Assembly (NCBI GenBank): GCA_964445715.1
Contig: CAYULJ010000001.1
Coordinates: 1-52,621 of the forward strand
Length of the DNA: 52,621 nucleotides
Source: an uncultured Planctomycetia bacterium
GTDB lineage: Bacteria; Omnitrophota; Gorgyraeia; Gorgyraeales; Gorgyraeaceae
Direction: 5' to 3'
In this document: one piece after another, positions 546 to 52,595 of the stretch
Numbering within the stretch: position 1 is the stretch's first letter
Layout of the letters: every line of letters begins with the position of its first letter
The notes under the pieces: model-generated
Databases searched by the model: none
The model's input: the letters and a program-made list of their open reading frames with translations, nothing else
What the model was told of the DNA's origin: nothing
Made by a program: the position numbers and the translations under genes

Positions 546-3500
546 CAAAGACAGAGATAGATGAAGAGAATTATAGAGATCTATTGTCAGGCAAGAGAAA
601 GCCGCTGTCAGAATTGCTTACGAGCTTAAATTTTAAAAGCAAACTAAGGGGGATAATGGGCTATGCTGCAACAGATTTTATTGATAGATTTAATGTTAAT
701 GCCAACGTTGCTGAGAGATTAGGTATATTTATTGATGAAATACGTCCTATTTCGGGTAGATTCACTGCTGTTGTATCTGCATTTGGACTAGAGGTAGTCG
801 GACAAGATATAGATAGCGTAGGATTTATGTTTACTCTTGAATTCAGAGAATATCTTGAATCCGATATCGTGATCAAAAAAGATGCTGCTGGGAATATATA
901 TATTGGATATGGAAAGCAGTGTGCAAGGGTGAGAACCAGTGGCGCTCAATATGAAGTGATTAGTCATAACCTTTTTGCTAGAGTTCCAGCAGCTGAGACA
1001 ATAACGATTACAAAGAAAGATGTTACGGTAGAGACCGCTGATGTTGCCGCAGCTTCCGAAGAAGTTATCCAACCAACTGTTGCTGAGTCTGAGGATGATT
1101 TAGAAGCTGATACGAGCACAGGCGGATCGGTTATACCAGAATTAGAATACATAGAAAAAGTAGCATGGCTTGAGACACCAGTTGCATATTTAGCTGGCTT
1201 TATTTACTTATGGCTGTCTGATATAAGTTTATATGCCCTGCCATTGGTTGGTCTTGGTCTCTGGATTTCACACTTTATAGGGGCCTTTGGCTATAAGAAA
1301 TACATAGAGGGCGGTACTTATAAAGAAGCGTTTAAGGCAGGCTTGCGCGCGTTGTTTAGGATAGATGTAACAACGCTTTCGTTTTTGACTTCTGTTATTG
1401 GTGTTGGGTTTTTTATAGCTGGACCGCTTGGGTTTGTTGTTGCAAATGCTATTTTAATATTGTGGCATTTTATCGTAAATAAATTTAGAGCTAAAGACAT
1501 AAAAGAGGAAGAAGAAGGGCGGCCTAGATTTGCCAGTCTGATAAACGGCATTGCCCGCCGTGGTTGGGCCAGCCTTTCTTCTTTCTTTAAATCTTATTTT
1601 TCTAAACATGAGGCGAGAAAAAGAAGCGCTGCAAAGATAGTGCGGATCCTTATGGATACAGGCGCGTTTGATCTTGATGATCATGCAGAGGATTATTTAT
1701 TCGATGAGCTTCTTGGAAAGCCAAGCCATGAAGTCGACTTTGCAACGTTACGCAGAATACAGCTGGCCTTGGAGCAGGAAGGCATAGAGGCCCTGAAAAG
1801 AAAAGCCCAGAAGAAGGATAAGTTTGAATTCTCAGAAGACGAAGCTGCGTATGAACAGGTAAAAGATTTGGCTGCAAGGGCTTTTAAGGGCGCTCTATCA
1901 ATACCTTTATATATGCCTAAAAACTTTATCTGGCAGCCAATCGCCCCTCATGTGCAATACCGCTATTCCAGGAAGAGTCGCCAAGGTTTACTTAGCAAGG
2001 ATGATATAGCGAGGGTTATAAAAGGCACAGAAGGCCTGGAAGAGAAAACAGCGCCTTCTACAAATACCCTGGTCATAGCTTTCAGGTATTTCTGGGATCA
2101 TGCAGGAGTGATTATCTTCGAGCTCTTAAAATTTTCCTTAAAGTTCGCAATCATATCTCAGTTTACCGTATTTATAGCACCTTTTATACTTGCACTTTTG
2201 CCTGTGGGGATTGCCACATTTTCAGTTGCCGGCATGCCTATTTTTGGCATGACATTTTTCGCATGGTCAGCCGAATATATATTGGACAGGCTTTTGACAA
2301 ATACGCTGTTGAATTCCTTATCTATAGTAAAGCAGAGAAAGCAGCAGCTTGCAGAGGAAAAGCTTGCCTATAAACTTTCAGACCTTCCTAAGATAGAGGG
2401 CGTAGAGATTCCAAAGGCAGGAGATTTCAATGCATTGTCAGCGTATCTAGAGGCAGCACAGGAAACCACAACCCGTCTTTCGAAACCTGATATCGCAGCC
2501 GTAGAAGAACGATTGAGTTTTTATCCTGATTGGCAGAGATCATATCTTATATCATTACTGAATGATATAACTTCCAGCACAGAAAGAGGTGTTCCTAGGG
2601 CGAGAGAGCCTCCGACCAAGATATCTAAGAAAGAATCTTTTGTATTGTATTTACAGGCCATAGTCCTAAGTATCCCGGTCTTCGAAGGCTGGACTGTCAG
2701 GATCTTCCTAAAGAATTATAAAGGCTCACAATTAAAAGGCTGGAATAAAGCAGCACATATTGTACAGCTATCCTTATTCGCGCTTGGTTCTTCCCTGACA
2801 TTTAGCATAATAAAATCTACGCTTTCCCATATGTTTATTACAGGCGCGATAAATCAGTTTAGCCAGGGTGCATTATCTCAGATTCCGGTTGTCGCGCCCA
2901 TTGTAAACTATGTTACGAATTCAGGAGATATGTTAGTAGATAGCGCTCTTACTAACGATATTACTACTTCTGTGTACCATGCTTTTGGCGGAGACCTGCC
3001 AACGCTTAAGCACTTTATCTTAGAACCAAGGGCAGATTGGCTATATGACCAAGATGCTGGATTTATTGCAAGCTCGTTAGCCTCGGATAGCAACGCAAGA
3101 GAAGTCTTTGGATTGATAGATATGAGAGATGAAACTCTTGGCCTCCAGGTCCATGCTGAGATGATAATGAATGCTTATGAATCAGCTGAACCTGAATATC
3201 AAGGAGAGGCCGGCAAAGCTGTGCTAGAGAGCATGTTATATGAGAGTATGTTATTTGCAGAAGGCGAATTCATGTTAATAGTTGCAACAATGGACAGACT
3301 TGACCAGCTGCAGGAACAAGGCCTTATCTCAGAAGAAATCGCTTCAGAGATCATGCAGGCCATGTCGTACTATGAGACAGCCGCGAGTGTGTTTAGTGGG
3401 TTAATGGAAGATGTTTTTCAGGCTGAGCCACAACAGGAACAAGAGCCTGATCGCATACCTCTCCCTGTAGAATACTTTATTCCAAACCCGTCAGCATCAG

Positions 3501-6500
3501 ATGAATACTTTCTTGATTTGAACAATGCTTTTCTAGACAGTTATGACTTAACCGGCTACGAGCTTCATATAACATTCTCAGGAGGAGAAGGGAAAACTGT
3601 CCAGCTTTTTTATAAGGACGGTGACTGGAGAAATCTCTATTCATCTCGACAAACAATCCCAGCTAGCGGACTTATTACATTTAACCCGGAATCTGACCCT
3701 GCAGATATAAGAGGTGCGGATCTTAGCAATGCCCGCGCAGTTGGGGCAAAGATATTCGGAGGCTTGGGCGACGTTACAATAGTAGATGCAGCTTTGGTGC
3801 GTATAGGAAGTGCTGAGGTAGTAGAAGCGCCAGCACCCACGCCTACTTTGGTGCCGACAATAGAGCCCACAGAGACTCTCACTGCATTAGAAATACCGCT
3901 CTTCGAATACCAAACTCAAGACTGGATAGACAGCCAGGCAATAGATGAAGTCAGGCACAACGCCGACGGTACATTGGATTTACATGTGCATTTAGCAAGT
4001 GAGGCAAATATAAAAGAACAGGTAATAGAGTTTCTAGAGACACATCCTGAACTGAATGTAGATATTAGCGGAAAAGGCATAGATGAGTTAGCAGTGCTAG
4101 TAGCGGATGCGATAGACTCGAGCGGAAACTATCAAGATCCAGAATATCAACGTATAAGAGAATTAGTTGGCCAGAGTAAAGGCGAAGCTTTTATAGACCT
4201 CCGTTATGCAGACATCGGCTATCCAGATCATGAACCTGGGCAGACTCTCGATCTCACAAATTATAGACTCGTAGTGACAGTGGACATTCCTCAGCAATTA
4301 GTTGCTCCAGAAGGCGCTCCTAATGGCATTCAGCTCTTCTTTAAGAGCGGCCCAGAATGGTCAGCTGTATATGCCAACTGGACTAATGTCTCACAGGGAG
4401 GTCAAATCACATTAGCTGTGGATATTGGTGCAGTAACTGAGAACTATAATTGGATTTCAAGAGATCCAAATGGCGAGGTATTATTTGACCCGACTGATAT
4501 CAATGCCTTAGGCATAAAGATCGGTTCAGGAGGCATAGCCCTCTCAAACTATGAGACAGATGCATGGTTAAAGGCGACCTCAGTTGAATTGGTACCAGTA
4601 GAAGAAGCAATAGATACAATCCCATATCCACGCCCGATAACACATGGCGAATTTTCACCTGTAGACGTAGAGAGCTTTGTATCCCACAGTGGCCGTAACG
4701 GCATCTGGGGAGAAGAGACGCCCTATGGAACAGCCATGCAGCTTGAAGGTGGATATCTAGATATTGTAGGACACACAGAAGATGGGAGGCCTATAACAAG
4801 GATAGAGCAATTTCTGTTGAATGTAAAAGAAGATGGCGGCAATGAAGCTCGAGTATGGCTATTTAATGACATACGCAATCCAGATGAGATATTCATAATG
4901 AAAGATGGGGCACCTATAGCATTAAGAGGAGGAGTATATGAAGTAACCAAAGCCATTATAGACGCGCAAGAGAGAACAGAAGTCAGGGTAATACCGGTAT
5001 TATTCGACTTCCATATCTTAAATAGCATAAGAGAGGAAGGCGGGGAACTGACAGGAGAGCATCCTGAATTTTTCACAGAAGAAGGAAGAGAGGCTCTTGT
5101 AGAGATTTTTAAGCCGTGGATACAGGGATATGCTTCTCAATTTGAATTAATAGATTTATTTAATGAGCCAGAGAATGTCGCGCCAGAGCCAGATGCTGGA
5201 GTATTGTATAACCCGCATGTATTAACATTCTTGCAATCATTCAGCGATTTAGTTCATGAATACCAAGGCAATGTAACAGTAGGTATAAATAAACCGGAGA
5301 ATGTGTATCGCTATCAAGATATTATACGGTATGACTTGGGAGATGAGTTTTCAGTGCATTTCTATAATGTCTCACCCGGAGACTTGCCATATGCAGGTGA
5401 ACTTGGCGTAGGAACTTCCCCAGTAAGGATTACTGAGATAGGTGCAGATTCTAGGGAAGAGGTAATAGCTTTCATACAAGAGGCATGGGAGAAAGGCTAC
5501 ACTGGAATATCATTCTGGCCACAGGACGGGTTTACATCTGAAGGCCTCCAGGAGGCACTGGATAGTCTTAGGGAAGAATCAGCTAGCTTCAAGGTACAGC
5601 CAAGGCCTGTCGTCTTTGCAATTCCTGCACTAGCTGCACTGGGAACAAGTGTAGCCGGCTTTATGGATCTTATAGCTGATATAGTGCCATCTCTGGATGA
5701 TTTTGATGTTTGGGATGTCGTTAAGGTGCTGGCGGTTGTTACTGTTGGTGGTATTGTCTTGAGCACTGCCGGGCCTGTTGGCTTGTTAGCGGTTGGTTTA
5801 GTCGTTTTTAGTGTTAGTGCCTGTACCACCCCGCCAACGCCTACTCCTGCACCAGCTCCGGATACAAGAACAGAGGTTTTTCTGGAAGCCATGGATAGAG
5901 CAATTCTGGAACTAAGACAGGAAGGCGCGCCTTATATTGAAGAGCTCAGAGAGATGAGGCGCATGTTCGACACAGGCAGGGCTGGTTTTGTATCTATGCC
6001 TGGATTGTGGATGGGTTTGGGAATCCCTTCGCCTGGAGAAGAAGGGGAGATACTTTTCAGTGTTAATTATGAACTTATGGCTCCTTTGTTAGAAAGGGCT
6101 GCGTATGACAATAGATATAATATTTTCCTGAAAGCGATGTTGATTAAAGAGGCAGCTTCTTTGAGTTTTATCCAGGATCATCCTCAAGAGATACAAGACA
6201 TATTTCTGTATAGCGAAGAGTATTACAGATTAAGATCTGATCCAGACAATGATCTCAATACGCCTGAATTAGTACAGGCAGCGCAGAATTATTTCAACAG
6301 TATAGTTACCAGGGAGGCATTTGGCTGGAAGTCCCATATGGAATATTTGGCTGATAATGACATGACAATAGAATCGCTTGTAGCGATGAGAGATGAAGCA
6401 GAGGCGCAGGGATTGTCGCAACTGTCCAGTCTTTTTCACAGTCACGCGATTTACACTTTAGTTGGCGCTCCTGATGGCAGGGTGGACTGGATAAATTTAA

Positions 6501-9500
6501 AACTCGTCCTCTCCAGCGCAATGCAGGTATTAGATGAGAATATCTATAGAGATATAATGACCATAGAGGAGAACAAAGGGACAGTGCGTTATGATGATTC
6601 TATAAATGACTGGGAACTGATTGGCGGCTTTGTCGATGAAAACGATAGATTTCATTATCCGGATAACTTTTTAGAATTCCTCAGGGAGGATAATATAGAC
6701 TCAGGCGCACAAGACCCTGCTACTGTGCCTGAACAGCCGGCAGTTACAGAAGAGGCGGCTGCGCAATTGTTGAGTGCGCTTCTTGAGGAAATCCATAGCG
6801 ATATGCTCGGAGGGAGAGATGCTGCATTATCTGGGTTACCTTATTCTGAAGAAGCTTATAATAACCTAAAAGATATATTGACTAGCGGAAGAGTTACGGT
6901 AGAAGACAGCACAGGGTTCTTTACGATTTTAGTCCCACAGGCTGATGGCCGCACAATAGATCGCGTAATCATAAGCAGCTCAATATTAAGTCCCGAATAC
7001 TATGCGATATTGAAAGATGCCTTGAGGCATGAACTCGTGCATTTTGCTGACAACACATTAGAGAGAAAGATGTTGTTGGCAGAGGAGTTTGGCGAGACTG
7101 TCCAGCTAGAGATCCTGAATTTGTTTTCCAGCGATGATTTTAAGCAAAACGGCTTAAATCTTTCTCAATACCTGGAACATAAACTCAGAGAAGATCCAGG
7201 GTTTGTAGAATTGATCAAACGGTTAACAGCTTTATATATACAGGATGAATACGTGGCATTTGATAGAGTACCTGGCAGTATACCTTTCGAGGTATACGCC
7301 AACTTGCTTGATCTTGACGGAGAAGGCAGGGCTACAGGGATCAGAGATGAGACGGGATTTAGATTATGGTTGTTTGAGGGCTATTTAAGAAGGCAGAATC
7401 CGCTTCTCTATATCCTGGCAGCAGAAGTAGAACGGATCGAAGGCCGCGGGATTTATCATCCAGTATATAATTGGGATAACGGGACAGCTATGCAGTATTA
7501 CCGCGTGCCTATATCCATAACAGAGACTGATGTGCAGTTTTTCGATCTTTCCTATCCGATGCTTATTCCCAGGGCATTTGCCTATGATGTAAATGGAAAT
7601 CCCAGAGCAGTGCCATCTCCTGCAGATGATATTTCTTTATACGTTACGCTGGAAGATTACAGAAGAGATTACCTCCCCTACATTATGGATCCTGGCTATT
7701 ATAGGGCAGAGACAACAGGAGGAGGCAAGATGTTTAAGATAATGCCACCTACTATTGCGCAGTATGATGCTGTCCAGGACCAGATAATAGAAGGCTTTCC
7801 AGAGGCCACCGAAGCCGACATCCGCGCCTCTATCCGCACCCAACTTCAGCCTATAGTCACAAACATCGATGACGTAGACACATATACCAGGGAATACTGG
7901 ATGGTATGGAACTCCTTTGCTCACCCATGGGTAAAGGAAGAGTTATCCAGCTTACTACTTGACTCTGGTAATAGAGGTAACCATGTCCTTGAGATAGTAG
8001 AAGCAATAGGCTTTGACCCAGAAGTAGACCAGACTGCAAAAGTCATCTGGGCTGATGATCTAAAAGATATATTCACTAATACCATCTCTGCGGATTATGT
8101 AAGGGGCACGTGGGCATTGTGGGGACTTGTACAGATAACAGGAGATGAGGCTTCAGACGCTGTAAGCGTAGAAGGCATATCCTCAGCTGTAAGAATAAAA
8201 TTAAACGAGTTGCTCGATGATCCTGCAACTGACTGGACCAGTTACCAGGCAATAATCCCTGCCTTAGACGGAGGAGAGTGGCCGGCTGATGTAAGGCTTG
8301 ACTCATTTGAGGTATTCGAAGGAGTTGTAAATAATCCAGGCGTATCTGATACTGAAAAGATAGAAATAGGAAATACAGTCCTTCGCGCGTTAGAAGCTAT
8401 CCACGCAGCAGGCAGCTACGGTATGTATGAACAATACATAATAGTAGCAGGAGCAAAGGTCCTTGCAGGAATAGGAAGGGATGAGACAATACCGGATTCA
8501 GATAAAGAAGCATTCTTTGATAGATTAAGCGCCTTACCTCTTCGTGGATTTACTGATCCTGAAAACAATGACGAGATATTCATACAAGAAGTGGATGAGG
8601 ACTTCTTGGTCATAAATCAATATTATCATATACCTGATGAGACCCTTGAAGCTTTAATGAGCCTGGACGCAGAAGCGCTGATTAATGGAGATGCCTTCAG
8701 GTCAGAAGATGACCCATTCGTAAGAGAATCTATCTATGGTAGTGAATGGGATAGGACAGTCGGCGACAGCGAGAAGCTTGCCCTATCACAGGCTGCGAGG
8801 ATTTTATTAGAAGGTTATAATCTTGAAAACTACGACACCTTGCCTCCAGAAGACCAGATCGCAATTAGAGCAGCCTTAGAGATAGCAGAAGCTGCATGCC
8901 ATGACGCAACACTCTCTATAGATGAAAAGAAGACCTGGGCAACATACCTTATAGATATATACACGAACACCTCTATACCTTATACAGTAAGGGCAAGAGC
9001 AAGCTGGGCTCCTTATGAGGTATCAAGAGACCCGCGTATAGACATTGCATCCAAGATAGATGAAATAGCCACACCTCTGATAGCATTTTTAAATCTAAAT
9101 ATAGATAACCTCACAAACTACGAGGCTGTCGCAGCATTAGACTGGGATACATACCCAGCCGGCGAGCAATTTGATTCCTTACGCATATTAAAGGAGATAG
9201 CAAGGTCCCCTGACTTTGAAACTCTTCCTGAATCAAACGTAACGCCTATAGTTGATGCTACAGTATCGGTTTTAAACAACATTAATCTGGATTCTCCTGA
9301 CGCGCACGATCTAGAGGCAATAGCGCACGGGACAGAGACATTAAACATAATCTTCTCGACTACAAACGCAATATCAGGAACCAGCATGCAAGCCGCATAT
9401 GATCTCTTGCTCAGCCTCTCGGTCAATGAGAATATCTACCACGAGATATATGTCAAGGATGTTGATGAAGACTCAAATACCGTAGAGATCTACTATAACA

Positions 9501-12500
9501 TAGCTGATGAGGTGAACAAGGCACTGGGGGTGGTGATGCAAACCCAACTCTCTCAAGGCCTCTCTGAAGCCGACATCCGCGCCTCTATCCGCACCCAACT
9601 TCAGCCTATAGTCACAAACATCGATGACGTAGACACATATACCAGGGAATACTGGATGGTATGGAACTCCTTTGCTCACCCATGGGTAAAGGAAGAGTTA
9701 TCCAGCTTACTACTTGACTCTGGTAATAGAGGTAACCATGTCCTTGAGATAGTAGAAGCAATAGGCTTTGACCCAGAAGTAGACCAGACTGCAAAAGTCA
9801 TCTGGGCTGATGATCTAAAAGATATATTCACTAATACCATCTCTGCGGATTATGTAAGGGGCACGTGGGCATTGTGGGGACTTGTACAGATAACAGGAGA
9901 TGAGGCTTCAGACGCTGTAAGCGTAGAAGGCATATCCTCAGCTGTAAGAATAAAATTAAACGAGTTGCTCGATGATCCTGCAACTGACTGGACCAGTTAC
10001 CAGGCAATAATCCCTGCCTTAGACGGAGGAGAGTGGCCGGCTGATGTAAGGCTTGACTCATTTGAGGTATTCGAAGGAGTTGTAAATAATCCAGGCGTAT
10101 CTGATACTGAAAAGATAGAAATAGGAAATACAGTCCTTCGCGCGTTAGAAGCTATCCACGCAGCAGGCAGCTACGGTATGTATGAACAATACATAATAGT
10201 AGCAGGAGCAAAGGTCCTTGCAGGAATAGGAAGGGATGAGACAATACCGGATTCAGATAAAGAAGCATTCTTTGATAGATTAAGCGCCTTACCTCTTCGT
10301 GGATTTACTGATCCTGAAAACAATGACGAGATATTCATACAAGAAGTGGATGAGGACTTCTTGGTCATAAATCAATATTATCATATACCTGATGAGACCC
10401 TTGAAGCTTTAATGAGCCTGGACGCAGAAGCGCTGATTAATGGAGATGCCTTCAGGTCAGAAGATGACCCATTCGTAAGAGAATCTATCTATGGTAGTGA
10501 ATGGGATAGGACAGTCGGCGACAGCGAGAAGCTTGCCCTATCACAGGCTGCGAGGATTTTATTAGAAGGTTATAATCTTGAAAACTACGACACCTTGCCT
10601 CCAGAAGACCAGATCGCAATTAGAGCAGCCTTAGAGATAGCAGAAGCTGCATGCCATGACGCAACACTCTCTATAGATGAAAAGAAGACCTGGGCAACAT
10701 ACCTTATAGATATATACACGAACACCTCTATACCTTATACAGTAAGGGCAAGAGCAAGCTGGGCTCCTTATGAGGTATCAAGAGACCCGCGTATAGACAT
10801 TGCATCCAAGATAGATGAAATAGCCACACCTCTGATAGCATTTTTAAATCTAAATATAGATAACCTCACAAACTACGAGGCTGTCGCAGCATTAGACTGG
10901 GATACATACCCAGCCGGCGAGCAATTTGATTCCTTACGCATATTAAAGGAGATAGCAAGGTCCCCTGACTTTGAAACTCTTCCTGAATCAAACGTAACGC
11001 CTATAGTTGATGCTACAGTATCGGTTTTAAACAACATTAATCTGGATTCTCCTGACGCGCACGATCTAGAGGCAATAGCGCACGGGACAGAGACATTAAA
11101 CATAATCTTCTCGACTACAAACGCAATATCAGGAACCAGCATGCAAGCCGCATATGATCTCTTGCTCAGCCTCTCGGTCAATGAGAATATCTACCACGAG
11201 ATATATGTCAAGGATGTTGATGAAGACTCAAATACCGTAGAGATCTACTATAACATAGCTGATGAGGTGAACAAGGCACTGGGGGTGGTGATGCAGGCTA
11301 TGGGAGCCAGTGGCATAGCTTTTGATTTAGAACCAGTTCGGGTGAGCGATTCAGAAGCAGCACAAGAGCAACCCGCAGCGCCGCAGCCAGCAGCAGCACT
11401 CCAGCAGCAACAAGATACTATAACACTGCTTCCTTATGAACCCGTTACTGATATTGGCCGAGACGGACAAGAATATATACTTAATTCAAGGTTACTATGG
11501 CAGGGAATATATGAATATGGCTATCTTGCTCACCAGGAGATAGTTGATGCAGACTGGAATTATCGTTTCGCAGAGTTAAATGGACAGCCTGTTCTCGCGC
11601 GCTGGGGTAGGCAGGATTATAATGCTGGAGCATTAGAGGTATTTAGCTGGACATATGCAGATGCTACTTTTGCCACAATCAGTATTGAAGAATTCAATAA
11701 TGATATAATCGTCCTTGATAATCAGGTGTCATTGTCCATGGATCAGCAGACTCTGTTCCTGGATACCTTGGGAGTGGGCGTAGCAGGCATCGGAGGCGGA
11801 GATATAGTCGATCTGCCATTGGAACCAGGCCCTGAGGGATTTGTTGTAGAGGGCATGCTCTATCGTCAGACCCTTGGTGGCCAGGTAGAATATGTGGATG
11901 CTGAGTTTAGATATTGGTTTGCCCAGCGCACAAGCGACAACGCTTATTTTCTCATAAGACAAGGCAGGTATTATTCGGAGCATAAAGATAAAATCGAGAT
12001 GTTTGAGATCTCGCCTGATCTTATTTCAGGAGAGACTCCGAGTTTCAACGATATGACCAGAGATGTGTTCAGGGACATTGTATCACAAGAACCAAGCGTA
12101 CCTACTACTTATGATGTTGAAGAGACAGTCTTGGTCGGCCTGGCTGAAATGCCTGCAGAAGCCCAGGTATATCCTGACGCACAAACATTCGAGTACGAAG
12201 GCCTTATAGAAGGCGTAATAAGCGGCAACAAGAAAGAGATCATGAGAGGGGATGCATTGCTGCAATATCTGGAAGGTCTGGCAATAAGTTATGAGTTGCC
12301 GTTAGAGATAAAACCATATGAGAACTATCCGGTTTTCACGAACTTCTACGAAGATGAGTCTGGGAACGCGCTTGGATATGATGTTTCAGTCTTTTTCTCT
12401 GAACTGGCGAGAGAAGGACATGAATATGACCCAGAAGCGTGGCGCCCTGCTGGCAGCACCCGGCCTCCTGATTTCACAGTTGTGCGCACTGACTTTATTG

Positions 12501-36500: not shown

Positions 36501-39500
36501 CTACTTCCACTGATATAACATTAATAATGCCTGATGGGAGCACTATCGAGAAAGATAGGGCTATCCTAAATATATTCTCCCAAGATCATATTCGGGTAGA
36601 ATTTTATGGCGATGAAGTGATGAGCGGTAATGATAAATCTGTAACAGATCTTAAAGCAAGATCTCCAGAACTCGATCTAGAAGTGGTAAGCGTAGATAAA
36701 GGCTTGAACGAAGGAGATATTATTAAATTAGAGCAGAGAGGCGTGAAGCTGGTAAGAGATGAAGATGGCAATGTTATCTCTGGGCATGAGGCTGTTGCAT
36801 ATCAGCTGGATAGAGAACTCGAGATCTTAGTTGGAGAGTTTGATGAGGAGAATATTCTTAAGAGGATATATAAGCGTCAGGAAAAAGAGAAATCAAGTCG
36901 TATCAATGCAATGATAGATACTGGCGTTACTACATCAGGCGCACCTGGTGACCCAGTGATCGGCGTAAGGTTTAAGCTAGACCATGAAAATGGAGAGATT
37001 AAAGATAAGAGGTTAGAGCTCCATCCATTGTTAGAAGAAAGACTTTCGCAGATAGAAGACAACGAGAATTATAGAATTATACTAACCGCTTTGCTGCTGA
37101 AAGAATTGGGTCATTTTGATGAGTGGAATTATGCAGACTTACTTCCGTTGGCATTCCTGACCCAACAATATATAACTAATCCGGATGATCCAGAGATTGC
37201 AAGAAGATTAGCTGAGCTGCAGCTTGCCTTTGAGGCCCCGAAATATCAAATCCTATATGACTATTTAGTTCAGAATCTTGGTGCAGGTGAGCATGCCCGC
37301 GCAATTCAAGTCTTGACTGAAATGATTGAAGCAGAGACTGACGAATTCTTGCAAGACATGCTCAAAGGCCTCAGGACTTTCATGCTAAATGTCGGAGAAC
37401 AGGGCATAAAGAAAGCCGCGGCTTATGACCTTAGTCAGGGCATTGGTCCGATTGCAAAAGCAATAGAGATGAGTCTGGATAAACTCAATGATGAATTAGT
37501 AGATAGAGCCGTAGATGAAGCGATAGTGCCTGAGCAGTCCACAGACGAAGTCCTGCTCGGCGCGACTGTGCCGATTATCAGACGAGCACATCGCGCTAAA
37601 CTTGCCTTGCTATTAATAAGCGCTTTTGGATTAACCCAGATATCCGCAAGCCCGATGAGCCCAGGGATCCTGACTGATTGGTTGCCTTACATAGGTGGCT
37701 TGGTAGCTCTTGGAATACTAATTGTGAGATTTGGGATTTTACAAGTTGGCAGAGTGAAATTAAAAAATCAAATTAATGGAGATATACAGATTCTTAAAAG
37801 CCATCATGCCAAAAAAGGATATGCTAAGCGCGGAGTTGCTGCTGCAAAGGGAGCAAGCGAGACAGAATCATGGAGAGTTACTCAAGTCGATAGAGCCCGA
37901 AGAGAGGCCAGAAGCTTGCGAGAACAAGCTCTTAGCTCAGAAGGTGATGCTGTATGGGACGGGAAGCAATGGCTTCCTCTTGTTGGCTCGGAGCAGAAAC
38001 AACAAGACTTGCTAACACGAGCTGAAGAGGCATATTGGACGGCAGAGGGTAAAGGCCTGAGACACGGACAGAGAATACATGAACTAGAAAAAATAATTAA
38101 AGAACGGGAGAGAGAATTAAAACAGACTTTGTCAGATTTAAATAGAGCACGCATACGCCTAAAGATAGATCTAAAGCGTTTAAAGAAAGAACATAATCAT
38201 CTAAAGATAGCTTTAATATCTATTAAGGATATGATTATAGGCATGATCCCAGTCTCGGGCATTCTTGTAGCAATCGGATGGGCTGTAAATTTCTTAAACA
38301 ATCGCCTAAATGTAATTAAAAGATCTTCTGATGTACTAATTAAAGCGACCCAGACACCTGAGGTAATAGCTCCTGTAACTCATGTAACTCAAATCCCAGA
38401 TTGGGCTGTAATTCCTATTATAATTGGTGTTGTAGTTGTTGGTGCTGCACTTGCTGTTGGAATTCCTGTTGGGGCAAGCCTTATTGGTGACAAAATCCAT
38501 GGATCTTCTGATAAAGACAATAAAGAAGGCAAAGACATTTCTTCTTCTGATACCTTGAAGTCTCTCGGCATAACTGCTTTAATTACTGCAACAACAGTTA
38601 CAGCAAGCTGCCTGACCCGCTCAATGCCTGTATTTGCCGCAGGCCTTGTTCTTCTTCTGCCTCTATACATGTTCACAAACCTTTTCTTAAAACTCAAGAG
38701 GACAGAGGAAAGACTTGCCTCCCAGGAGACAAGGGCAGGTCCATATGAAGCCACAGGGCTATTCGAAAATAATGCAACCGCTGACAATAACTTAACCCAC
38801 CTTGCAACTACGATAGATGATATAATTTACTACCACCCGATAGAAATCACAAACTACCACCCAATAGAGCAATACCAGATATTCATACATGAATTGACGC
38901 ACCGGGTATTTGGAGCTAATGAAGGAATCGCATATTTTGTGCAGGGTGTAGCAGGTACACTTGTCTTGGTCCCGTTCGAGCTAATCCTACGTACAATAGG
39001 AACAGGTAGAAATCTCATACAGCGAATAGGAAATTACGGCAGGACTGTCCTTAGATTAGTTTCCACAGGAAATCTTTCCCAAAATCTTTTTTTTGACTTA
39101 CTTAAGAAAGCGTTTTCAAAAGTCCGAGGCCTTGCTCCCGAAGAGGAGCTAGAACTGCATTTGCAAAACTTGCGTGATAAAAATGCATGGGTACGAAGCA
39201 CTGCAGTAAAGGTATTAAGAGAGACTAAAGACCGCCGGGTCATTGATGGAATATTGGAAATCGTAGAGGATGAGGATGAGAATATAGAAATACGTTCTGA
39301 AGCAGCAACGCTCCTGGGAGAGATCAGGAATCGTCGACCGGTAGATGGATTAGTAGAACTTTTACTGGATAGCGCTAAAGAGGAAAAGCTGCTTTCTAAA
39401 AAGCCAGTTCCCAGGGAAGATATAGATCTGGCAATAGCATTAAAAAATATGCGCTGTGCTATAGCAGAGGCCTTAGGAAAAATTGGAGGCCGTAGTGCGA

Positions 39501-42500
39501 GAGACGGCCTATTAAAGGCCTCAAGAGACAACAATCCGTCAATACGTTTTCATGTAGCAAGGGCATTGGGAGAGACAGGAGACCATGAAGCAGAGGAAGG
39601 ATTATTGAGGCTATTAGATGATGAAAAGGCATTTGTACGTGATGCTGCAGCAGAGGTATTGGGAAAGATTGGGAATTCTGGAGACTCTAGAATAGAAGAG
39701 AAGTTAATGAGATTATTAACTGATGAAGATGAACATGTACGTTTTTCTACAGTTAAAGGTATTGGAAATTTAGAATTTGTAGATGGATTGATAACAGCAT
39801 TGGCAGTTGATGATCGATTCGTCCGTAGAATAGCTACGCAACTGTTAAGAGAGCTGGGAGAAAAACAAGTCATAAGGACCGGTGATAGACGTGTTGTAGG
39901 GTCATTGATAGAACACGTAGATGACGTAGATGGAGTTGTTAGGAAAAATGCTCTAGATGCATTGGTAGTGCTAGGAGATGAGGATACCATATTTCTTTTA
40001 TGTCAAGTTTTATCAGGTGTTCCTGAAACAGAGGTCGTTTCTATTGCTGACGATCACGACTCAATAGTCGAATACTATCAGCCGTTAGTTTATGACAGGT
40101 TTAGTATGGCAAGTGTTACGTTGCTTGGCGAAGAAACAAGAGTTAGTCCACTAAAACAAAGAATTCCTGATGCGATAGATACAATTTTTGAGAGACTCAG
40201 GAAGCAAAGAGCAGAGAGAAAATTTAATATGGGACAGCTCAATAATCAGAGATTAGGTGAGTTTTTGCATTGGTTAGAAGAGATACCTTTAGATGATGGC
40301 ACATGTCTAGGCGATCATATAGTAGCTTTTGGTGGTGCACCGAGGGATGCATATATAGAGAAGAAACTTGTTGATATAGATGTAACGGTCAAAATTCCTT
40401 TGACAGACCAAGAGAGGGTCGCTTTCTTAGGGACTCGTAGTATGGTTAATGAAAGAGTATATTCATATGCTAAGGAGAAGCTACAACTATTAGCAGAGGC
40501 ATTAGGAGTAGATTGCGAGCTATTTCTTCAGCCTCCAAGTGCAGAAAATAGAATAATGTGGCGGGGAGAATCTGGAGAAATAGAGATACAATATTCTGGT
40601 CCAACAGTTCCTACGGCTGCGCTTAGAGAAAACCAAGAAGAGAAAGTATATTTAAAGAGGGCGTTTGTTGATACAAACACAGGGATTTTATATTCGTCAA
40701 GAACAGGCCCAGCCTTATCACAGATGGCGTTAGACTATAAAGGAAATGTATATGGGCGCGTTCATGCGTTAGATGATTTTGATAATGGAATAGTGAGTAT
40801 AGCAGGAGATGGGCATAATTTTACCATAGGGCTTATACTGCGACTATTACGGTTAAAACATGAATTCGAATTTAGAGTCTTAAAGAATGATTACCAATTA
40901 GTTATTGATACGCTTAAGAGAATGAGCTTGTCAAAGGGAGATGGGGCAATGCCTTCCTATGTTAAAAAGGCTACAAGTGATCAGGTAGATAAACTAATTA
41001 GAGTGGCACAGGATCCGCAGGCTACCCATGAGGAATTAATCGCATTAGGGATATATGAGTTATTGAAGGATATATGGGATATTGATATGCAAGGGGATAT
41101 AGAAGCAATGATTGACAGCGAAGGCCCGGCCAATTCTATTTGGCTGCAGGCCCTTTCTTCTATTGTTTATGTCACCTTACCTTACCTTGCATATTTGTCC
41201 CAGTGGGCTGTGCTACTTCTCCCATTTCTTTTTTATTTTCTTGGCCATGAAGACCTCCCCCTCCCTGTTTTAGGTCATGGCGCGCTGGCGATGTCTATCA
41301 TGGGCATAGGCCTTGATGTAAATCCCCAAGCAGTGGTAGAGTTCCCTAAAAAACTCGCCGGACAAAAGAAGTATAAAATTGTTGTTTTATGTGAGTCAAA
41401 TGCATTCCGCAGTCCTATCTTAGAAGATAGGTTGCTTGAGAGCATAGAAAAAAGAGGATGGGAAGAGTTCTATGATGTTATATCTCGCGGAATGCACCAT
41501 CTAGCTGAAGGCCAGAGCGAACGCTTAAAAAGAGATATTCGCGCTACCTTAAGAGCAAATTGGGAATATTCTGAACGCGTTAGAATGCTCATGGATATAA
41601 CTATTCCTCAACAAATATCTGAGGAAGATGTCAAAGACGCAAGTCTTATCCTGGTAGCGACTCACGGAGAAAAAGAAAGCATTTTAAATATGTATCCTCA
41701 TATGGAAGGAAGAGTTATTTTAATAACTCAGTTTATATCAGAAAAGGACCCTGTCTATGGAAAATTATTACATGGCGAGGATGTGCCAGATTTAAGAGAG
41801 AACATTCCTGGCTTAGGAAAGATCGGAGCGGAAGAACTTTGGAGAATATATAATAAGGTCCTGACAGGACTTAGCGGGTATCTGAAAACGGCGCGCCATC
41901 ATGAATTTATGGCAAACACTAGCGTACATATCATTCGGAAAAATAATCAAGCTTTCATTTATCACTGGGATACTGGAGAGATCGTTTACTTTGACTGGGG
42001 AGAAGGAAGGGGGCTTACCGAAGAGGAGTTTTCAAGCTTGGACAGGGTTACGATAGGGCATATTAGAGCAGCAAGCAAGCTCAACATAGGCGGGAGACCC
42101 AGATTTAATTTAATAAAACACAGAGGCAAGGAGATAGAATTTGATGTTATTCAGGGACAGGTAACAGAGATTAGAATTACAGAGTCCATAGGTGGACCCG
42201 AAGTCATAAGACCACTTCTTATATATATTATCGAAGATGACGGCGGATTAAAACTCGTAGATTCTCGCGGCAAGTTAAGCAAGAGCGTGATGATGGAATT
42301 CAAAGGCCATAGAATATTAGTAAGAGGGGAGAGAGTCTGTGTTGGTAAGGATGGAACTGTGGCTTTAGGCTTGGACCGAACGTACAAAAACAGAAAAGGT
42401 AAAGATGCAGTGTCGAATAAGTGGGTTGAACTTGGGGATAAAAGATTGCATGGGGCAAGATTTGAAGCAGAGTTCGATTGGACAAGTACACGGAACAATA

Positions 42501-45500
42501 CGCACGCAGACTATTATATGTCGAGGATGCGATTTGCAGACGAGGACGGAAAGCCGACTCTGGATTATAGAGGCAATCCTATTGTGAATTATCAGGGAAA
42601 TCCTCTTACGCTTGAGATAATGCCTGCTTTAGAGAGGCATCAGTGGGATGTAAGAAGGCAGATAGCCAGATTATATCCTATACGAGAAAGGGATTTGGAT
42701 GAAAAGACAAAAGGCGGAAGATTTAGATATGCTATTTTCGATAATATTACAGGCAGGTGGAAAGGCCAGGCCAAAGGCGATAAAGAGGATACCCGTTACC
42801 TATGGTCTGAGATCAATCTTGATGTATTGGATGGGACTGCGGATAGTCATCTTTTCGGGCCAAGACTTAATCAAGATGCAAATCTGTTAATACTTCGGGA
42901 GCATTTAACATACTTTGAGCCGCGCAATGAAGCTGCAGGCTTGCCTGTTAAGGTCCGTTATCTATACAGAGAGCCTGTTAGCGCTACAATTGTAGACGAA
43001 GACGACAAGGTTGTTTATAAGGAAGGCACGCCATGGTCAAGGAAAATCAGATTTGGTAAATTAAGCAAAAAACCTGAATCCTACCGTCCAGCCGATGCCA
43101 ATGACCGGAAACTCCTTGTTGATGCTTGTGAGGCAATATTAGATTTTAATATGTTAGTTGCGCTCGAAAAATTGGACACATTCTGGCAGAGAAAAATTCC
43201 AGATGAAAATCACGGACTGGCAGAGAAGTTGGCAGAAGCAGTTAAATTTAAGATAAATAGTAATGATGCAGGAACGGATGTGGCTGATTTAATTGAAGCG
43301 TGGGAAAATAACAGAATAGGCCATAGTTATGAAGACGTTGTGGATAAAATTCTTTTTTATAAATCAGGACAGGGAGAAGTTAGAAAATTAGAAGGCAGCA
43401 TGTTCTTATACCTTTTTGTCGTATGGGCAAGGGCTTTACAGGGACAGGCAGATTTTGGATACAGGCAAGAAGATATTCATAGAGCATTTAAAAGAGCCTT
43501 GATTTATACTTATACGAGCTCACATGAATTGAATCAGGCTAGAGAAAGCGGATTGGTCGATCTTGATTTTGCGCTGTTAAGGTTATTTCTAGGCCCTCCT
43601 CAGCTTAATCCGAGAGAAAAAGAAACGCTGACTCGTATACCTCAACTGTTATTAGAAAAAGGTGTTAATGAGGCTCTTAATGCGAGATATTATATTAGTG
43701 CCATAAAAAAGCTGGGAGGGCGTCCCGTGAGAGACGAAGGTTACGCTGCTAAGCTCGAACAGTGCCTCTATGTTGTTGGGATAGCTGGCAAAGTAGGCCT
43801 TATCAAAAAAGCCGATGTCAGGTTGCTGAAAACTATTGTAAATGGATCCAGGATTCTTAGTTATAAGATTCAAGGTTTATCAAATAGAGAGATCGGTCGT
43901 AAGCTTTCTATGGGTCGCTCTGTAGTCAGTAGAACTTATAATAGATTCAGAGAACTCATTGGCCTGGGTCATATGTTAGAAGGTCTAATTCGCAGTCAAA
44001 GTCTAGATCTTGAAATGCACCTTGAAGCTGCGGAGATAGCTAAAAAGAGAGACCTTATGGAAGACGATCTTAGTTCAGTTAGAGAAAGGCTCTCGGCCCT
44101 TAAAGAAGCAACTAGCAATATCTCCTCCTCTGATACCAAAATAGCCAGTATAGCCGCTACCCTGATATCTATCTCGACAATAACAGCAGGATACCTGACC
44201 CGCTCTGTGCCTCTATTGGCTATAGGCCTTGTGCTTCTTCTGCCTGCAGCCATGTTCATCTGGTTTTTCTTTAAACTCAGAGCAACTGAGACTAGGCTCG
44301 CCTCTGGTGAAATCAGGGCAGGCCCGTACGAACCCATAGGACTTTTCCAAAACAACGCAAGCCCTGACGAAGACCTACGTTACCTTGCAACTACTATAGA
44401 CGGGATCATCTACTACCATCCAATTGAGCTTACAAATTACCACCCGATAGAACAATACCTTATATATATACATGAATGGGCGCATAAGAAATTTGCCTGC
44501 ACAGGATTTAAGATGTTGGATGAATTCCTTGCGTATGGCTTTCAGTGGTTGTGCATAGTGGCCGTACCGGTTGCACTAGTTCTTTTATTACAACAGTCCG
44601 GGCAAGGCTTGTCTAGAAACACCCTCACTGTGCCCCGTACGCAAATCGTAGATTTCGTACGGGGCGTGGCTGGTGGGGCTTCTGGCTTTGCCTGGGCTGA
44701 GCTATTGGGATTTATAGGTATGTGTGCGATGGGAAAAGGACCTAGGCAATTGAACATGTTCGGTGACCAGGGCGATGATTCAGGGCCTGACAGCGATGAA
44801 TCAGATGATTCACAATCTGAATACAATGAGATAAAAGAAAGAATTTTGGAAGCTCTAGCTAGTCTAATAGAATCTGCCAATGCTGAAGCTGTGAAATGGA
44901 CAAAAGAGTTAGAAAGTTTACCAAAAGGCCATACGTCAACATATACTTACTTAGGCGAGATAAGCCGTCAGGAAGCGATTGCCAGAAAAGCTCAAGAGGC
45001 AAAGGATGCCTTGGAGAATAAAGGCGCAAAAGGCCTCATCAGGTATCTGAATAAAAAAGACCGCAGCCGGACGATAAGAGATAGAGGTCGAGGGGTGTCG
45101 CCTTATACTAAGGCGAAGAGTGATATTAGGCAAGCCATACTGGAAGATGCTCAAGAGCTACGCAGTAAAGAGATAAAGCTAGAAGGAAGTTCACGAGGAC
45201 AAGGCCTTGTATTATTTAATATTATCTTTGCTGTAGTCCTAGGGTTAGCCGCGTTGTTATTTGGAGATTTTCTTATAGACCTGATTTTTACAGGAGCGTG
45301 GGATACGCCAGCAGTTCCTAAGGTGTTACTGGCCAGTTCTCTTGGCGGTTTTGGCCTGTTGCAGAAAGCCCTTGGGATTATTGATGGCACCCAAATATAC
45401 GAAGATATTCGAGAAGAATATGGCACTGAATTAAGTGAAGCGCAGGAAAGGATTGCGTTCTGGAGAGACAAGATATCCGAAGTCGCTCCAGATGATAGCG

Positions 45501-48500
45501 AATTATTGACTACGCTCGAATTTCATTTAAGACTGGATACATTTATTGCGCGTATGAATACAGAGATATTGGAATTATTAAGCTCTGTTAATCTTTCTGA
45601 CTTATGGAAACTTCTGGAATTAAACTATAGGATTAGTAGTAGTCTTGCTGCAATCGTAGATAGCGAAGACATTGATCAGCTATCCAGATTAGAGAAAGAG
45701 TGGGAGTCAAAAAAACTTTCTATCTCAATGCAAGTGGTGCAGCGTTCTATCGAGTCTTCCACCTCTTCTCCTAATTCCATCGCCTACCGCATCGCAAGGC
45801 TTTTCTCAGTCGATGAAGAAGTTACCAAACGTATCGGGATCGCTGGTTTATGGCTTGAGATCCCATTACTACTCTGGGCTTCAGTGACTCAGCCTTTTGA
45901 ATTACTTGCGCCAGCTCTGTTGGGTTTTGTAGCACTTCACATAGTTTTAGAGGCAATAGAGGAGTATCGTGCCCGAGGGCAGCTTGATTGGGATAGAGGA
46001 GATGTTATAAGGCGTTTTATTACCCAGTCTGCTGTTTTTGCACCATATGCACTTATTCCACTTGCCATTACAATTAGCTCACCTCTATTATTAGTCGGCC
46101 TCATGCTATTTGCAGCCTTTACGCATATTATTTATGATTTGAAGAAATTTGATACTGCTGTAGAGGGCCTATCTTTTGATGAGATTATCGAAGAGATAGA
46201 AAAGTCAGTTGCGGCGCATGATACAGCTAGGGCAGATCGACTGATAGATGAACTCGACAAGAGACTTGATCTCTTACTTGGAGATCCTTTTGCTGGACAA
46301 CCTTCCAAGGTGACCAATGCCTTAGTATATCTTTTAGAGAATGTCTATAATTCCGATAACATCGAATATTTTTTTAGAATCGCTGCTATTATACTGAAAT
46401 GGCAAATTAAGAAGCCATTGGTTTTTAAGTATCTAAGAGCTTGTCTACAAGACCAACCAGTTTCTGTAATAGTTGAGGCTGGTTCTCTTCTTCTGGGGCA
46501 TACGTCTGCAACCCCGGATAATATAAAAGCAATGAGGGCTTTGACATCTGTGCTAGGAGGCTATTACTCAACCAATGACGAATCCCTTAAACTCAGGGTG
46601 AAAGATATTTTATTAGCAGAACGCAGGAAAGATAAAGTCTGCTCTGCGCTTTTATATGTGTTTCAGGATGCGACACCTGAGGGAAAGCAAGAGTTATGTT
46701 CTGTGCTTGGAGAATTAAAGAATAGAGAAAGCGTCGAGCCTTTACTTAATATGGCAAGAGAAGAATCTAATCCAGCTCTTAGATCTATTATGGCGCAAAC
46801 TATAACTGAAATACTTGAACTTCCTATAGAGCCCGAGTTAATTTTAGAGAGTGATTTCGAAGGTCTTAGAGAAAGAGTTTCGCAGTATATAAATGACGGT
46901 ACCTATGGAGAAAAAGCACAAGAGGTTTTGATAGGCTTGGATATGGGAGAGCCACATGAATTATTGTCTATGTTAGATAAATATACAATAGAGGTTGTGG
47001 GTAGGGATTTGGCTGCAAAAGATGCCATTAAAAAGAAAGCCCTTCAGGTATTAGCATTGGCAGAAGAAAAGGTGGTAAATTTTGGTGAGGTTATAGAAGA
47101 TGTTCTGCCAGCGGTCATACTTCTGGATGGCTTGGGTTCGACTGATATTTTAGATGCGCTTCTTGTTTTCTTTATTGCGCTGCACGAATCTGCGCCAGGA
47201 GGGAGAAAAGTCTTTTTAGACCGCGCTGAGTTTCTTCCGGGCGTTAATCCTAATCGGCAGATACGACATAATGGTAGTAGAACTCCTGTTAGAATGTCAG
47301 ACCGCGTTAAAGATGCAAAACCTCAAGAAATCATTTCTCACTTTGCAAGCATGACAGAGAAAGTGAAGATTAGACGCTGGGATACTTCTTCTATGAGACT
47401 TTCTTCTGAGCGCCAGGTGGCTTTGCGTGACGGTGATTTTATTCTTGAAGATGACCTTAGAAGGATAGGAGATTTCTTGGAGCCTATAGAGATCAGAGAC
47501 GGGAGAGAAGTTTACGACTTGAAAGAAATAACGCCGCGCAAGGGCGTTAAAGTAGTTGCTAACAATAGATGGGCAGGGGGGCATACTAAGTCCACGGAGC
47601 TGCTTCTGCTTAGCCCAGTCGGACTAGACGGTATTGGGACTATTTGCGAAGATGTTCTTTTTGTAAGACACAAGGTATCTAGCGGAGATACACAGGAGAA
47701 CGTGTATCTTTTGTATTCTATATACGCAAATATGCTTCCGAGCATTCTTAAAGAAGGAGTTGAGAAGGGTGAAGTAACCCAGAAGGATATTCGCAGGGCT
47801 TTAAGAGATCGACCTGTAGCAGGTGTTCATATAGGGTTAGATGGAATGATTGTTATCCAGCCCTATTATTGCTGCACGGGTTGGGCGCAATATTCTTTTG
47901 ATCCGGTTAGCAACCTAACAGTAGGAGGAGAGTGGGTATTTCGTAGTTTTATCAAGAGACTGGAGGGATTAGGCTATGGCCCTTATGAGGTTGAATATAC
48001 TCCTTCCGGTATTATTTACGATTCAGAAGGTTTGGTAGTATCTTTAGTCAGCGCAACTGCAGAAAATCCAAAAATGAAATCTCCTTTAAGAGATTATTTA
48101 ACCATGAGAGATGCTGACCCAGGGACACCTTTTTCGGAACACCAGCTAGAGATTATTAGAAAATATGGCCTGGAAGGTGTGGACTGGTTAGCGTTTATGA
48201 CATCGACTGTTCCAGATGATACTCCTGGAGATATAAGAGAGGCGGCTAAGAGCGTAGTAGCGAGAATAAGAGAAGGAGAAGAATATAGGGACATAAGAGA
48301 TTCCTTTGCCGATAGAATGCGCCTTGCTTTAGATACGATATTTTTTGGCATTGGCAATAGATCAGCAGCAATCGGTTCAGATGTGACAGGCGCAAACTTT
48401 AACTTTGACGGCATGTTTGGCAGAGGGAAACTTTCTGAAATGGATGTTCTCCTAATAACTGCTGACATACAGCGATCTGTTGAGCTGCGAAAGAAATTGA

Positions 48501-52559: not shown

Positions 52560-52595
52560 CTTTACACGTTAACATTGTTAAAGTGTAAAGTTAAG
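52555..52595 (+). repeat. Palindromic element E2 (perfect 13-bp arms), starts at the stop codon of the 129-aa ORF
   Basis: CTTAACTTTACAC (52555-52567) and GTGTAAAGTTAAG (52583-52595) are exact reverse complements around the 15-nt loop GTTAACATTGTTAAA. E2 lies 454 nt downstream of E1 in the same orientation. Confidence 0.8.

Follow-up and report, generated by a model that had tools for sequence, protein, structure and literature searches.

A giant Omnitrophota gene predicted to encode a multi-pass membrane protein with a GH5/CBM-like exo-region and a cytoplasmic enzyme tail

Introduction

Giant proteins with many transmembrane (TM) segments are an acknowledged open problem in the Omnitrophota: how the chains are inserted, whether they stay intact and which of their parts face outwards. 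West-Roberts et al. 2023 (bioRxiv 10.1101/2023.11.21.568195) report numerous TM regions in all full-length Omnitrophota giant genes and a mixture of glycosyl hydrolases, glycosyltransferases, peptidases and glycolytic domains such as phosphoglucose isomerase (PGI); they also note that TMHMM and DeepTMHMM disagree, and raise the question of export. Seymour et al. 2023 (PMC10066038) describe multi-TM giant open reading frames (ORFs) with large extracellular domains and cite the 39,678-amino-acid (aa) protein of V. archaeovorus, with 42 predicted TM helices. A 2026 preprint (bioRxiv 10.64898/2026.06.07.730766) catalogues 916 long Omnitrophota proteins, 94% of them with a TM helix or signal peptide; at 10 thousand amino acids (kAA) or more the mean is 22 helices, the number rises to 331 (in 122 kAA, about 1 per 370 residues), and insertion at such length is called experimentally unvalidated. 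Here we describe a giant protein encoded by a single ORF that takes up nearly all of a 52,621-nucleotide (nt) stretch of DNA (contig CAYULJ010000001.1 of assembly GCA_964445715.1; this whole stretch is called the window).

The window protein is a new, largely orphan case of an Omnitrophota architecture that has already been described, and no new kind of system. With the 'Archaeovorin-type' giants it shares the probable phylum, the single huge ORF, a density of about 1 TM helix per 370 aa, a mixture of glycoside hydrolase, glycosyltransferase-like, HExxH/peptidase-like, PGI and HEAT modules, a mostly Pfam-dark and poorly conserved sequence, and the same export question. It differs in size, since at about 17.4-17.8 kAA it is under the limit of West-Roberts et al. 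(>30,000 aa, gene >90 kb), although within the 2026 catalogue of proteins of at least 10 kAA. The locus of its relatives is a housekeeping one, downstream of proS, whereas the three sources stress type II secretion system and pilus neighbourhoods; further, a sharp acidic exo-region and an internal lipobox did not turn up in the descriptions taken from the three sources. As regards the Archaeovorin-type domain set, three GH5 domains are firm, a GT2-like region is weak, HExxH is present as motifs only, and PGI is present as in some Archaeovorins. The SecA_DEAD/SecA preprotein-binding domain, which most Archaeovorins have, gave no Pfam match in any slice of the ORF at E<=0.01, and C39, S8, methyltransferase and NUDIX domains were not found in the window. 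An earlier note on this DNA had proposed that at least 15 hydrophobic clusters weave very large soluble blocks of one chain onto both membrane faces, a biogenesis problem for which it knew no characterised precedent; multi-TM Omnitrophota giants with mixed extracellular and metabolic domains had in fact been described, by prediction, and the note's statement holds only for the mechanism.

Flavivirus and pestivirus polyproteins are likewise single chains that cross a membrane many times, with alternate domains on opposite faces and a topology set by internal signal and stop-transfer sequences. They are viral, about 3,000 aa long and made at the eukaryotic endoplasmic reticulum, and their processing is demonstrated, whereas here it is merely suggested by a lipobox and HExxH motifs. 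Sec-exported giants such as Staphylococcus aureus Ebh have thousands of contiguous residues exported and a hydrophobic segment as membrane anchor; in proteins of this type there is one signal, at the N-terminus, and one anchor, at the C-terminus, without large cytoplasmic enzyme blocks or repeated re-insertion.

Results

Domains, composition and charge

We consider it fairly likely that the giant gene encodes one multi-pass cytoplasmic-membrane protein, with a GH5 and carbohydrate-binding-module (CBM)-like exo-region and a cytoplasmic enzyme tail. The sidedness of this protein can be argued without counting helices: from the GH5 and CBM-like paralogues, from an acidic, Lys- and Cys-poor block lying between TM segments, and from the PGI, CofD and HD domains. 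The coordinates of the features are collected in Table 1, where residue i corresponds to nt 3i-1 to 3i+1 of the window.

Table 1. Features of the giant ORF in window coordinates (nt)
Feature	Position	Strand	Remarks
Single giant ORF	2..52105	+	at least 17,367 codons; 5' end cut by window; TAA at 52103-52105
Conserved N-terminal module, part	2..631	+	aa 1-210; equals aa ~360-570 of relatives with signal peptide
TM cluster 1	1223..1480	+	aa 408-493; ~3 helices
TM cluster 2	2144..2272	+	aa 715-757; tight hairpin
TM cluster 3	2636..2815	+	aa 879-938; weaker, 1-2 helices; acidic region starts here
CBM-like beta-sandwich module	3392..3799	+	aa 1131-1266
GH5 mannanase-type domain 1	4583..5632	+	aa 1528-1877; NEPE at aa 1721
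TM cluster 4	5606..5830	+	aa 1869-1943; read as hairpin; ends in lipobox VSAC (Cys1941)
Block E	5831..16456	+	3,542-aa acidic orphan, no TM-grade peak; HExxH at aa 2343; CBM-like module at end
TM cluster 5	16457..16615	+	aa 5486-5538; 58-aa uncharged Gly/Ala-rich run, read as hairpin
GH5 mannanase-type domain 2	17342..18361	+	NEPE at aa 5946
GH5 mannanase-type domain 3	20102..21100	+	NEPE at aa 6866
TM cluster 6	21437..22165	+	aa 7146-7388; single TM 7146-7166, K/R-rich 134-aa loop, then ~4 helices
TM cluster 7	23117..24136	+	aa 7706-8045; ~6 helices
GT2-like region	25856..26248	+	aa 8619-8749; QMSRW (QxxRW-type) and AED motifs
TM cluster 8	26126..27844	+	aa 8709-9281; ~8 helices; homologous to TM regions of stand-alone/partial Omnitrophota proteins
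HD domain	28148..28267	+	aa 9383-9422; E=5e-5; 22.7-24 bits by slice, cut-off 22
CofD/YvcK-like domain	34709..35296	+	aa 11570-11765; Pfam E=4.6e-13 to ~1e-12; TIGR01826 E=1.4e-8
TM cluster 9	37601..37747	+	aa 12534-12582
TM clusters 10-11 and HExxH module	38231..38989	+	HELTH at aa 12963; paralogue of aa 14706-14880
HEAT repeats	39149..39781	+	aa ~13050-13260 strong; second, weak set aa 15549-15603
TM cluster 12 (numbering of the earlier note)	41123..41317	+	aa 13708-13772
Low-molecular-weight phosphotyrosine phosphatase	41378..41749	+	aa 13793-13916; above Pfam cut-off
TM cluster and second HExxH module	44141..44734	+	HEWAH at aa 14824
TM cluster	45203..45367	+	aa 15068-15122
TM cluster	45833..46135	+	aa 15278-15378; ~4 helices
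Two phosphoglucose-isomerase-like domains	48596..50710	+	aa 16199-16427, 16611-16903; Pfam E=4.4e-22 (first)

Three NEPE motifs prompted a profile search against the PDB, with a profile built from the 3 in-chain paralogues and 2 database homologues. The profile matched 2c0h at E=5.6e-22, with 4oou, 3vup and 5y6t down to 2.5e-14, over about 260 of its 317 positions; the alignment covers the whole barrel, with the acid/base NEPE on NEPE and the nucleophile Glu region (ITEIG/VGEF) aligned. On these sequence grounds the three domains are firmly assigned to GH5 (clan GH-A), mannanase type, with predicted catalysis. Single-sequence searches gave nothing useful in Pfam (E<=5) for the GH5, CBM-like and HExxH slices and 0 matches in the PDB for the first 8,900 aa, and a homologue search with aa 1400-1960 returned 2 matches only. 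GH5 domain 1 has its closest homologue, at 55% identity, in P0001, a stand-alone protein of 526 aa with an N-terminal signal peptide and a C-terminal CBM-like copy; in a second GH5 homologue (P0002) the GH5-like domain is placed after a multi-TM region.

The CBM-like module, of about 130 aa, is present in copies at aa 1131-1266, 1378-1500, 5317-5454 and 5595-5745, the first and third of which are 50-56% identical. An AlphaFold2 (AF2) model of the module is an all-beta sandwich with a predicted local distance difference test score (pLDDT) of 80. Its best PDB folds in Foldseek are the CBMs of mannanase 1wky, AlgX and CBM65 (E ~1e-3, TM-score 0.37-0.53), and the Pfam family Mann_GBD_bact matches the second copy weakly (aa ~1443-1481, E=7.7e-4); a profile of the module had no significant match to PDB sequences. 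The label 'CBM-like' is reasonable but not proven, and glycan binding is predicted only.

The earlier note had placed hydrolase and CBM blocks at 3.4-5.6, 5.9-16.4 and 16.7-21.4 kb. The three GH5 domains bear this out for the first and last of these. In 5.9-16.4 kb no hydrolase was identified; it is orphan sequence, in which the CBM-like module at the end is the only recognisable part. An exhaustive HMMER search with the first 1,200 aa of this block E (aa 1960-3159) against 1.84 billion representative proteins found one match, a 110-aa fragment. About five tandem repeats of some 100 aa, 31-48% identical and with the motif YRD..TY.EAEDG.GW.VTP, occur within the block (13025-14551, aa 4342-4850).

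The second half of the protein carries domains of a different type. Pfam, run on 1,000-aa slices, was almost blank apart from the matches in Table 1. A PDB sequence search confirms PGI (2q8n, E=1.1e-35), of which the second copy is a diverged paralogue, and HEAT; NCBIfam adds a YvcK-type CofD-related match and HEAT repeats and nothing else, and a homologue search with aa 12500-15400 gave 2 matches, to the HEAT repeats only. The helix-free 9.7-kb block (27850-37598), described earlier as holding kinase, nucleotidyltransferase and phosphatase-type enzymes, does contain the HD and CofD/YvcK-like domains, but its kinase and nucleotidyltransferase calls come from sub-threshold matches (ROK, E=0.29; Hexapep_GlmU, E=0.015) and from motifs picked out by eye (DVGGSD, LAGGFGER). 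For the GT2-like region, Glyco_trans_2_3 matched aa 8619-8749 at E=8.9e-6, with 26.1 bits against a Pfam cut-off of 27, and was lost on another slice. The AED and QMSRW motifs of this region are invariant in 7 relatives; a profile of the GT2/TM region had no significant match in the PDB, and AF2 of aa 8440-9300, from a 7-sequence alignment, gave an unusable model (pLDDT 41). Every enzyme type whose substrates are phosphorylated or nucleotide-activated is located beyond aa 7166.

From nt ~2400 to 21500 (aa ~800-7200) the protein is acidic, with a net charge of -7 to -13 per 100 aa (-9 to -13 in the core), a pI of ~4.1-4.5 and about 2% Lys. Just 3 Cys occur in the 5,996 aa of this block, whereas 8,758 aa elsewhere contain 29 (Fisher p=1.9e-4). 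TM cluster 3 marks the first switch and the single helix aa 7146-7166 the second, after which the 134-aa loop is 20% Lys plus Arg (K+R). CBM-like paralogues flank both cluster 4 and cluster 5, and GH5 domains stand before cluster 4 and after cluster 5; because of this paralogy, blocks D, E and F (aa 939-1868, 1944-5485 and 5539-7145) are expected on the same side of the membrane. A positive-inside bias on the flanks of the clusters, which had been suggested as a check, was found in the curated 45-helix model: juxtamembrane K+R is 20.5% on the inner and 7.5% on the outer side (p=8e-7), and 21.6% and 7.6% respectively for aa>7166 alone.

Proposed topology

From these observations we infer a topology in which the large blocks probably change sides just a few times, not 15. 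What is observed are the frame, the domain assignments, the hydrophobic clusters and the change in composition, whereas the sides of the blocks, the function and the biogenesis are deduced from these. The N-terminus would lie just upstream of the window, probably with a Sec signal peptide; since nearly all syntenic relatives start with a classical signal peptide, the conserved N-module would probably be outside. Past three small TM clusters the chain would re-emerge at about aa 940 and remain exoplasmic for some 6,200 residues (to aa ~7145), a region with the three GH5 mannanase-type domains and four or more CBM-like beta-sandwiches that the hydrophobic hairpins at aa 1869-1943 and 5486-5538 would pin to the membrane. 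The helix at aa 7146-7166 and the K/R-rich loop would bring the chain back to the cytoplasm. The last ~10,200 residues (GT2-like, HD, CofD/YvcK-like, HEAT, low-molecular-weight phosphatase and 2 PGI domains) would lie on the cytoplasmic face, with about 11 even-numbered helix bundles, whose outer loops are of <=59 aa, stapling this tail to the membrane. Such a protein may be a membrane-tethered array linking cytoplasmic sugar-phosphate and nucleotide-sugar chemistry to exoplasmic binding and cleavage of mannan-type glycans. Its biogenesis might proceed by co-translational insertion through the signal recognition particle, SecYEG and YidC, with SecA-driven export of the three long loops.

The earlier picture of one chain on both faces, with loops thousands of residues long to be exported, is upheld in that secreted-type and cytoplasmic-type modules are parted by TM-like clusters; the exported loops would be of 930, 3,542 and 1,607 aa. 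The 15 side-switches implied by it are not: composition, paralogy and the K/R bias point instead to one exoplasmic super-region and a cytoplasmic remainder, with most clusters probably acting as even-numbered staples.

Several points weigh against the topology proposed here. The p-value of the K/R bias is partly circular, as K/R helped to choose some of the marginal helices. A TopPred-like dynamic programme of our own, using the K+R bias with automatically picked helices, gave unstable sidedness: as the thresholds varied, so did the side given to the blocks, since the programme took in weak peaks within soluble domains. It was rejected as evidence. Hydrophobicity alone leaves it ambiguous whether clusters 4, 5 and 8 hold an odd or an even number of helices. 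At clusters 4 and 5 the reading is complicated by a repeated motif, [ST]FKVQPR[PL]V followed by a Gly/Ala-rich hydrophobic stretch, which is found before cluster 4 (5591-5611, aa 1864-1870) and after cluster 5 (16649-16669, aa 5550-5556). Block E and most of the protein are orphan, the ROK and hexapeptide matches are sub-threshold, and the evidence for GT2 is weak, being under the Pfam cut-off, not reproduced on another slice and without a PDB profile match. The assignment to the Omnitrophota comes from the N-module and the synteny of relatives. Finally, if the cell is diderm, export would leave these doubly tethered blocks in the periplasm, which is a poor fit to degradation of prey walls. 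The proposed topology does offer concrete sites for testing, namely Cys1941, the helix at aa 7146-7166 and the HExxH modules.

A lipobox and HExxH modules

The alternative that survives best is that the chain is inserted in the same way but then cleaved into separate products, as a membrane polyprotein. Candidate cuts would be made by signal peptidase II at Cys1941, by a signal-peptidase-like activity after other in-to-out helices, and by the membrane-adjacent HExxH modules within the chain. The internal lipobox VSAC (Cys1941; 5822-5860, aa 1941-1953) coincides precisely with the end of cluster 4's in-to-out segment and is followed by a Pro/Thr linker, TTPPTPTPAPAP; it is the only TM-adjacent lipobox match in 17,367 aa, in a protein of which Cys makes up 0.22%. 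The segment before it consists of K1908 and then an uncharged run of 32 aa. The lipobox is thus internal and not N-terminal, and an h-region of about 32 aa is unusually long for a lipoprotein signal, which counts against such a cut, as does the lack of a recognisable cleavage motif at any other cluster.

There are four HExxH motifs, one at aa 2343, two in a duplicated TM module and one directly after cluster 8. The two copies of the module (38534-39046 and 44117-44641; aa 12845-13015 and 14706-14880) are 52% identical and have the same order: two TM helices, an 'IIYYHPIE.TNYHPIEQY' stretch, HExxH and a further hydrophobic run. This layout may resemble that of HtpX/M48-type membrane proteases, and motifs so placed speak for cleavage; against it, Pfam assigned no protease family to the HExxH modules even at E<=5. 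Modules of the giant protein are also separate genes elsewhere, such as the secreted GH5 protein P0001 and a GT2-like protein of 1,507 aa (P0011). Cleavage by in-chain peptidases is raised by West-Roberts et al. 2023 too. Overall we think a membrane polyprotein unlikely.

A programmed form of processing, in which the Cys1941 signal and the HExxH modules cut a woven precursor into a lipid-anchored exoprotein of 3,500 aa and membrane-tethered enzyme pieces, we regard as a long shot. It would be analogous to viral polyproteins, and we know of no description of such a route for cellular proteins. If it were true, the growth from 0.9 to 17 kAA by addition of modules at one conserved locus would be a natural system for the gain of topology units.

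The reading frame

A six-frame ORF scan showed essentially one feature, a + strand frame running from the first bases of the window to the TAA. It has 0 stops where ~1,089 are predicted from base composition; GC1>GC3>GC2 holds all along it, with a uniform codon-position signal, and the off-frame stop density is uniform at 70-110 per 1000 codons. Since stops are absent and both codon-position GC and off-frame stop density are uniform, the giant ORF is real coding sequence throughout. Nothing closes the frame upstream, and therefore the gene is cut at its 5' end. Judging from the start position of relatives, the true start probably lies about 360 aa upstream of the window, which would give a full length of ~17.4-17.8 kAA.

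It is very improbable, in our view, that this frame is not one translated protein, being either an assembly artefact or chimera or several proteins made from internal starts. A perfect in-frame tandem duplication does occur (7811-9540 = 9566-11295, +; 1,730 nt, 100% identity, period 1,755 nt = 585 codons), each copy of which consists of ~290-aa units that are 25-28% identical to one another; it is either a very recent event or an assembly artefact. The syntenic relatives are merely 0.9-3.3 kAA long, and homologous modules are separate genes elsewhere. These points are outweighed by the stop-free frame and its uniform codon-position signal, and giant ORFs are common in the Omnitrophota, one of them backed by proteomics. 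Further, in-frame Shine-Dalgarno plus ATG/GTG contexts number just 8, fewer than the 19.8 +/- 4.5 of codon shuffles, and none of the 8 is at a module boundary, so that a disguised operon with internal translation starts was rejected.

Hydrophobic clusters

Apolar segments were located by a 19-residue Kyte-Doolittle (KD) scan and a scan for uncharged runs. Each of the 15 apolar clusters named by the earlier note holds at least one 19-residue KD peak or a long uncharged run, although the signal is weak or ambiguous in two of them: 2639-2860 reaches only a KD of ~1.5, and 38925-39000 consists of one run beside HExxH. The 40 observed peaks of KD>=1.6 are little above chance as a raw count. Because shuffled Leu/Ile/Val/Ala-rich sequence of this kind already gives ~30, a bare peak count proves little. 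The arrangement is more telling: 31 of the 40 lie within 80 aa of another peak, where 200 shuffles gave 5.4 (maximum 15), and there are 12 uncharged runs of at least 30 aa, the longest of 57-58 aa, where shuffles gave 0.62. Such peaks are almost absent from the soluble blocks: aa 1945-5485 has 0 and aa 9282-12533 has 2. Curated by hand, the clusters hold about 45 helices (range 45-52), roughly 1 per 370 aa. This hand-curated set has the uncharged hydrophobic helices of >=19 aa and the positive-inside flanks of helical multi-pass inner-membrane proteins.

Two other ways of calling helices were set aside. Cut-offs of the Goldman-Engelman-Steitz/TopPred type gave 14-34 'certain' helices in shuffled sequence and so do not discriminate at this composition; a naive Hessa-scale sum was mostly positive in ΔG even on obvious TM runs, and served for orientation only.

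The weakest alternative, barely credible to us, is that most of the apolar runs are helices buried in soluble domains, or anchors on the lipid surface, with the whole protein on one side of the membrane; it can draw on the ~30 peaks in shuffled sequence, on isolated peaks inside the CofD and kinase-like regions and on a run at aa 12975-12995 that may be part of the HExxH domain, but it is opposed by the twelve uncharged runs of 30-58 aa, the strong clustering and the K/R-asymmetric flanks, by the conservation of the cluster-8 region as a helix bundle in relatives, and by the presence of both secreted-type GH5 and cytoplasmic-type PGI/CofD on one chain.

Relatives and genomic context

Most of the giant protein has no detectable homologue; relatives were found chiefly for its N-module and for the cluster-8 region. 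Residues 1-210 are 52-67% identical to ORFs in nine metagenome contigs and in several GTDB metagenome-assembled genomes (MAGs) of Candidatus Omnitrophota, and these relatives lie downstream of uppS-cdsA-dxr-rseP-ispG-proS wherever the upstream region was examined. Nearly all of those with a recoverable N-terminus open with a signal peptide, for example MSFKSLRRIASIFTLVIFTATNSIYA followed by AP. The IspG of the relatives' locus is 69-78% identical to that of Candidatus Omnitrophota MAGs and <=54% to that of any other phylum. The ORFs at loci L002-L011, L017 and L019-L021 have the common ~570-aa N-module and range from 917 to over 3,258 aa, with TM clusters scarce or absent; in their C-terminal parts they are related neither to each other nor to the window. 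Since the syntenic ORFs are so much shorter and almost free of TM clusters, the window gene represents, on sequence comparison, a case in which the variable C-terminal extension found at this conserved locus has been enlarged to an extreme degree, and the relatives display module gain at that fixed place.

The relatives of the cluster-8 region are partial proteins of Omnitrophota and allied MAGs, 47-54% identical to aa 8033-9254; their NCBI names are mostly Candidatus Omnitrophota, with one Candidatus Aureabacteria and one Candidatus Makaraimicrobium. A scan of a genome collection with aa 8550-9050 gave no match. Two of the relatives (P0007 and P0009) have a GT2-like region and a cluster-8 homologue, then one terminal TM and a GH5 domain as C-terminal unit, whereas the 1,507-aa Omnitrophota protein mentioned above (P0011) is a stand-alone GT2-like membrane protein; the three come from loci L067 and L068. 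The fusion is conceptually like cellulose synthase BcsA with the endoglucanase BcsZ. It resembles the giant in that a single chain combines a putative, weakly supported GT2-like region that would be cytoplasmic with a helix bundle and a GH5 domain that would be exoplasmic. The giant differs in carrying its GH5 domains upstream, and its bundle leads into an extra helix and then 3,252 aa of cytoplasmic-type sequence. At the point of the terminal TM, the giant has a 57-aa uncharged run (two helices) and then the HD/CofD block. The number of helices therefore tracks the kind of domain that follows, one TM leading to GH5 in P0007 and P0009 and two leading to HD/CofD in the giant.

Besides the giant ORF, the window contains one other coding feature, a 129-aa AbiEii-like fragment, and nothing else. 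A near-perfect palindrome of 37 nt (TAACTTTACAC..TGTTAAAGTGTA; arms of 18-20 nt, loop of 1 nt) occurs in two copies, at 52103-52139 and 52557-52593. None is expected by chance and none was found in 68 fetched loci; each copy overlaps a stop codon, one that of the giant ORF and the other that of the next ORF, and the element could be a terminator or a small repeat element. The ORF between the two palindromes (52170-52559, +) matches the C-terminal part of the AbiEii nucleotidyltransferase toxin only (Pfam E=2.6e-6), gave no match in an exact look-up, and is probably a gene fragment.

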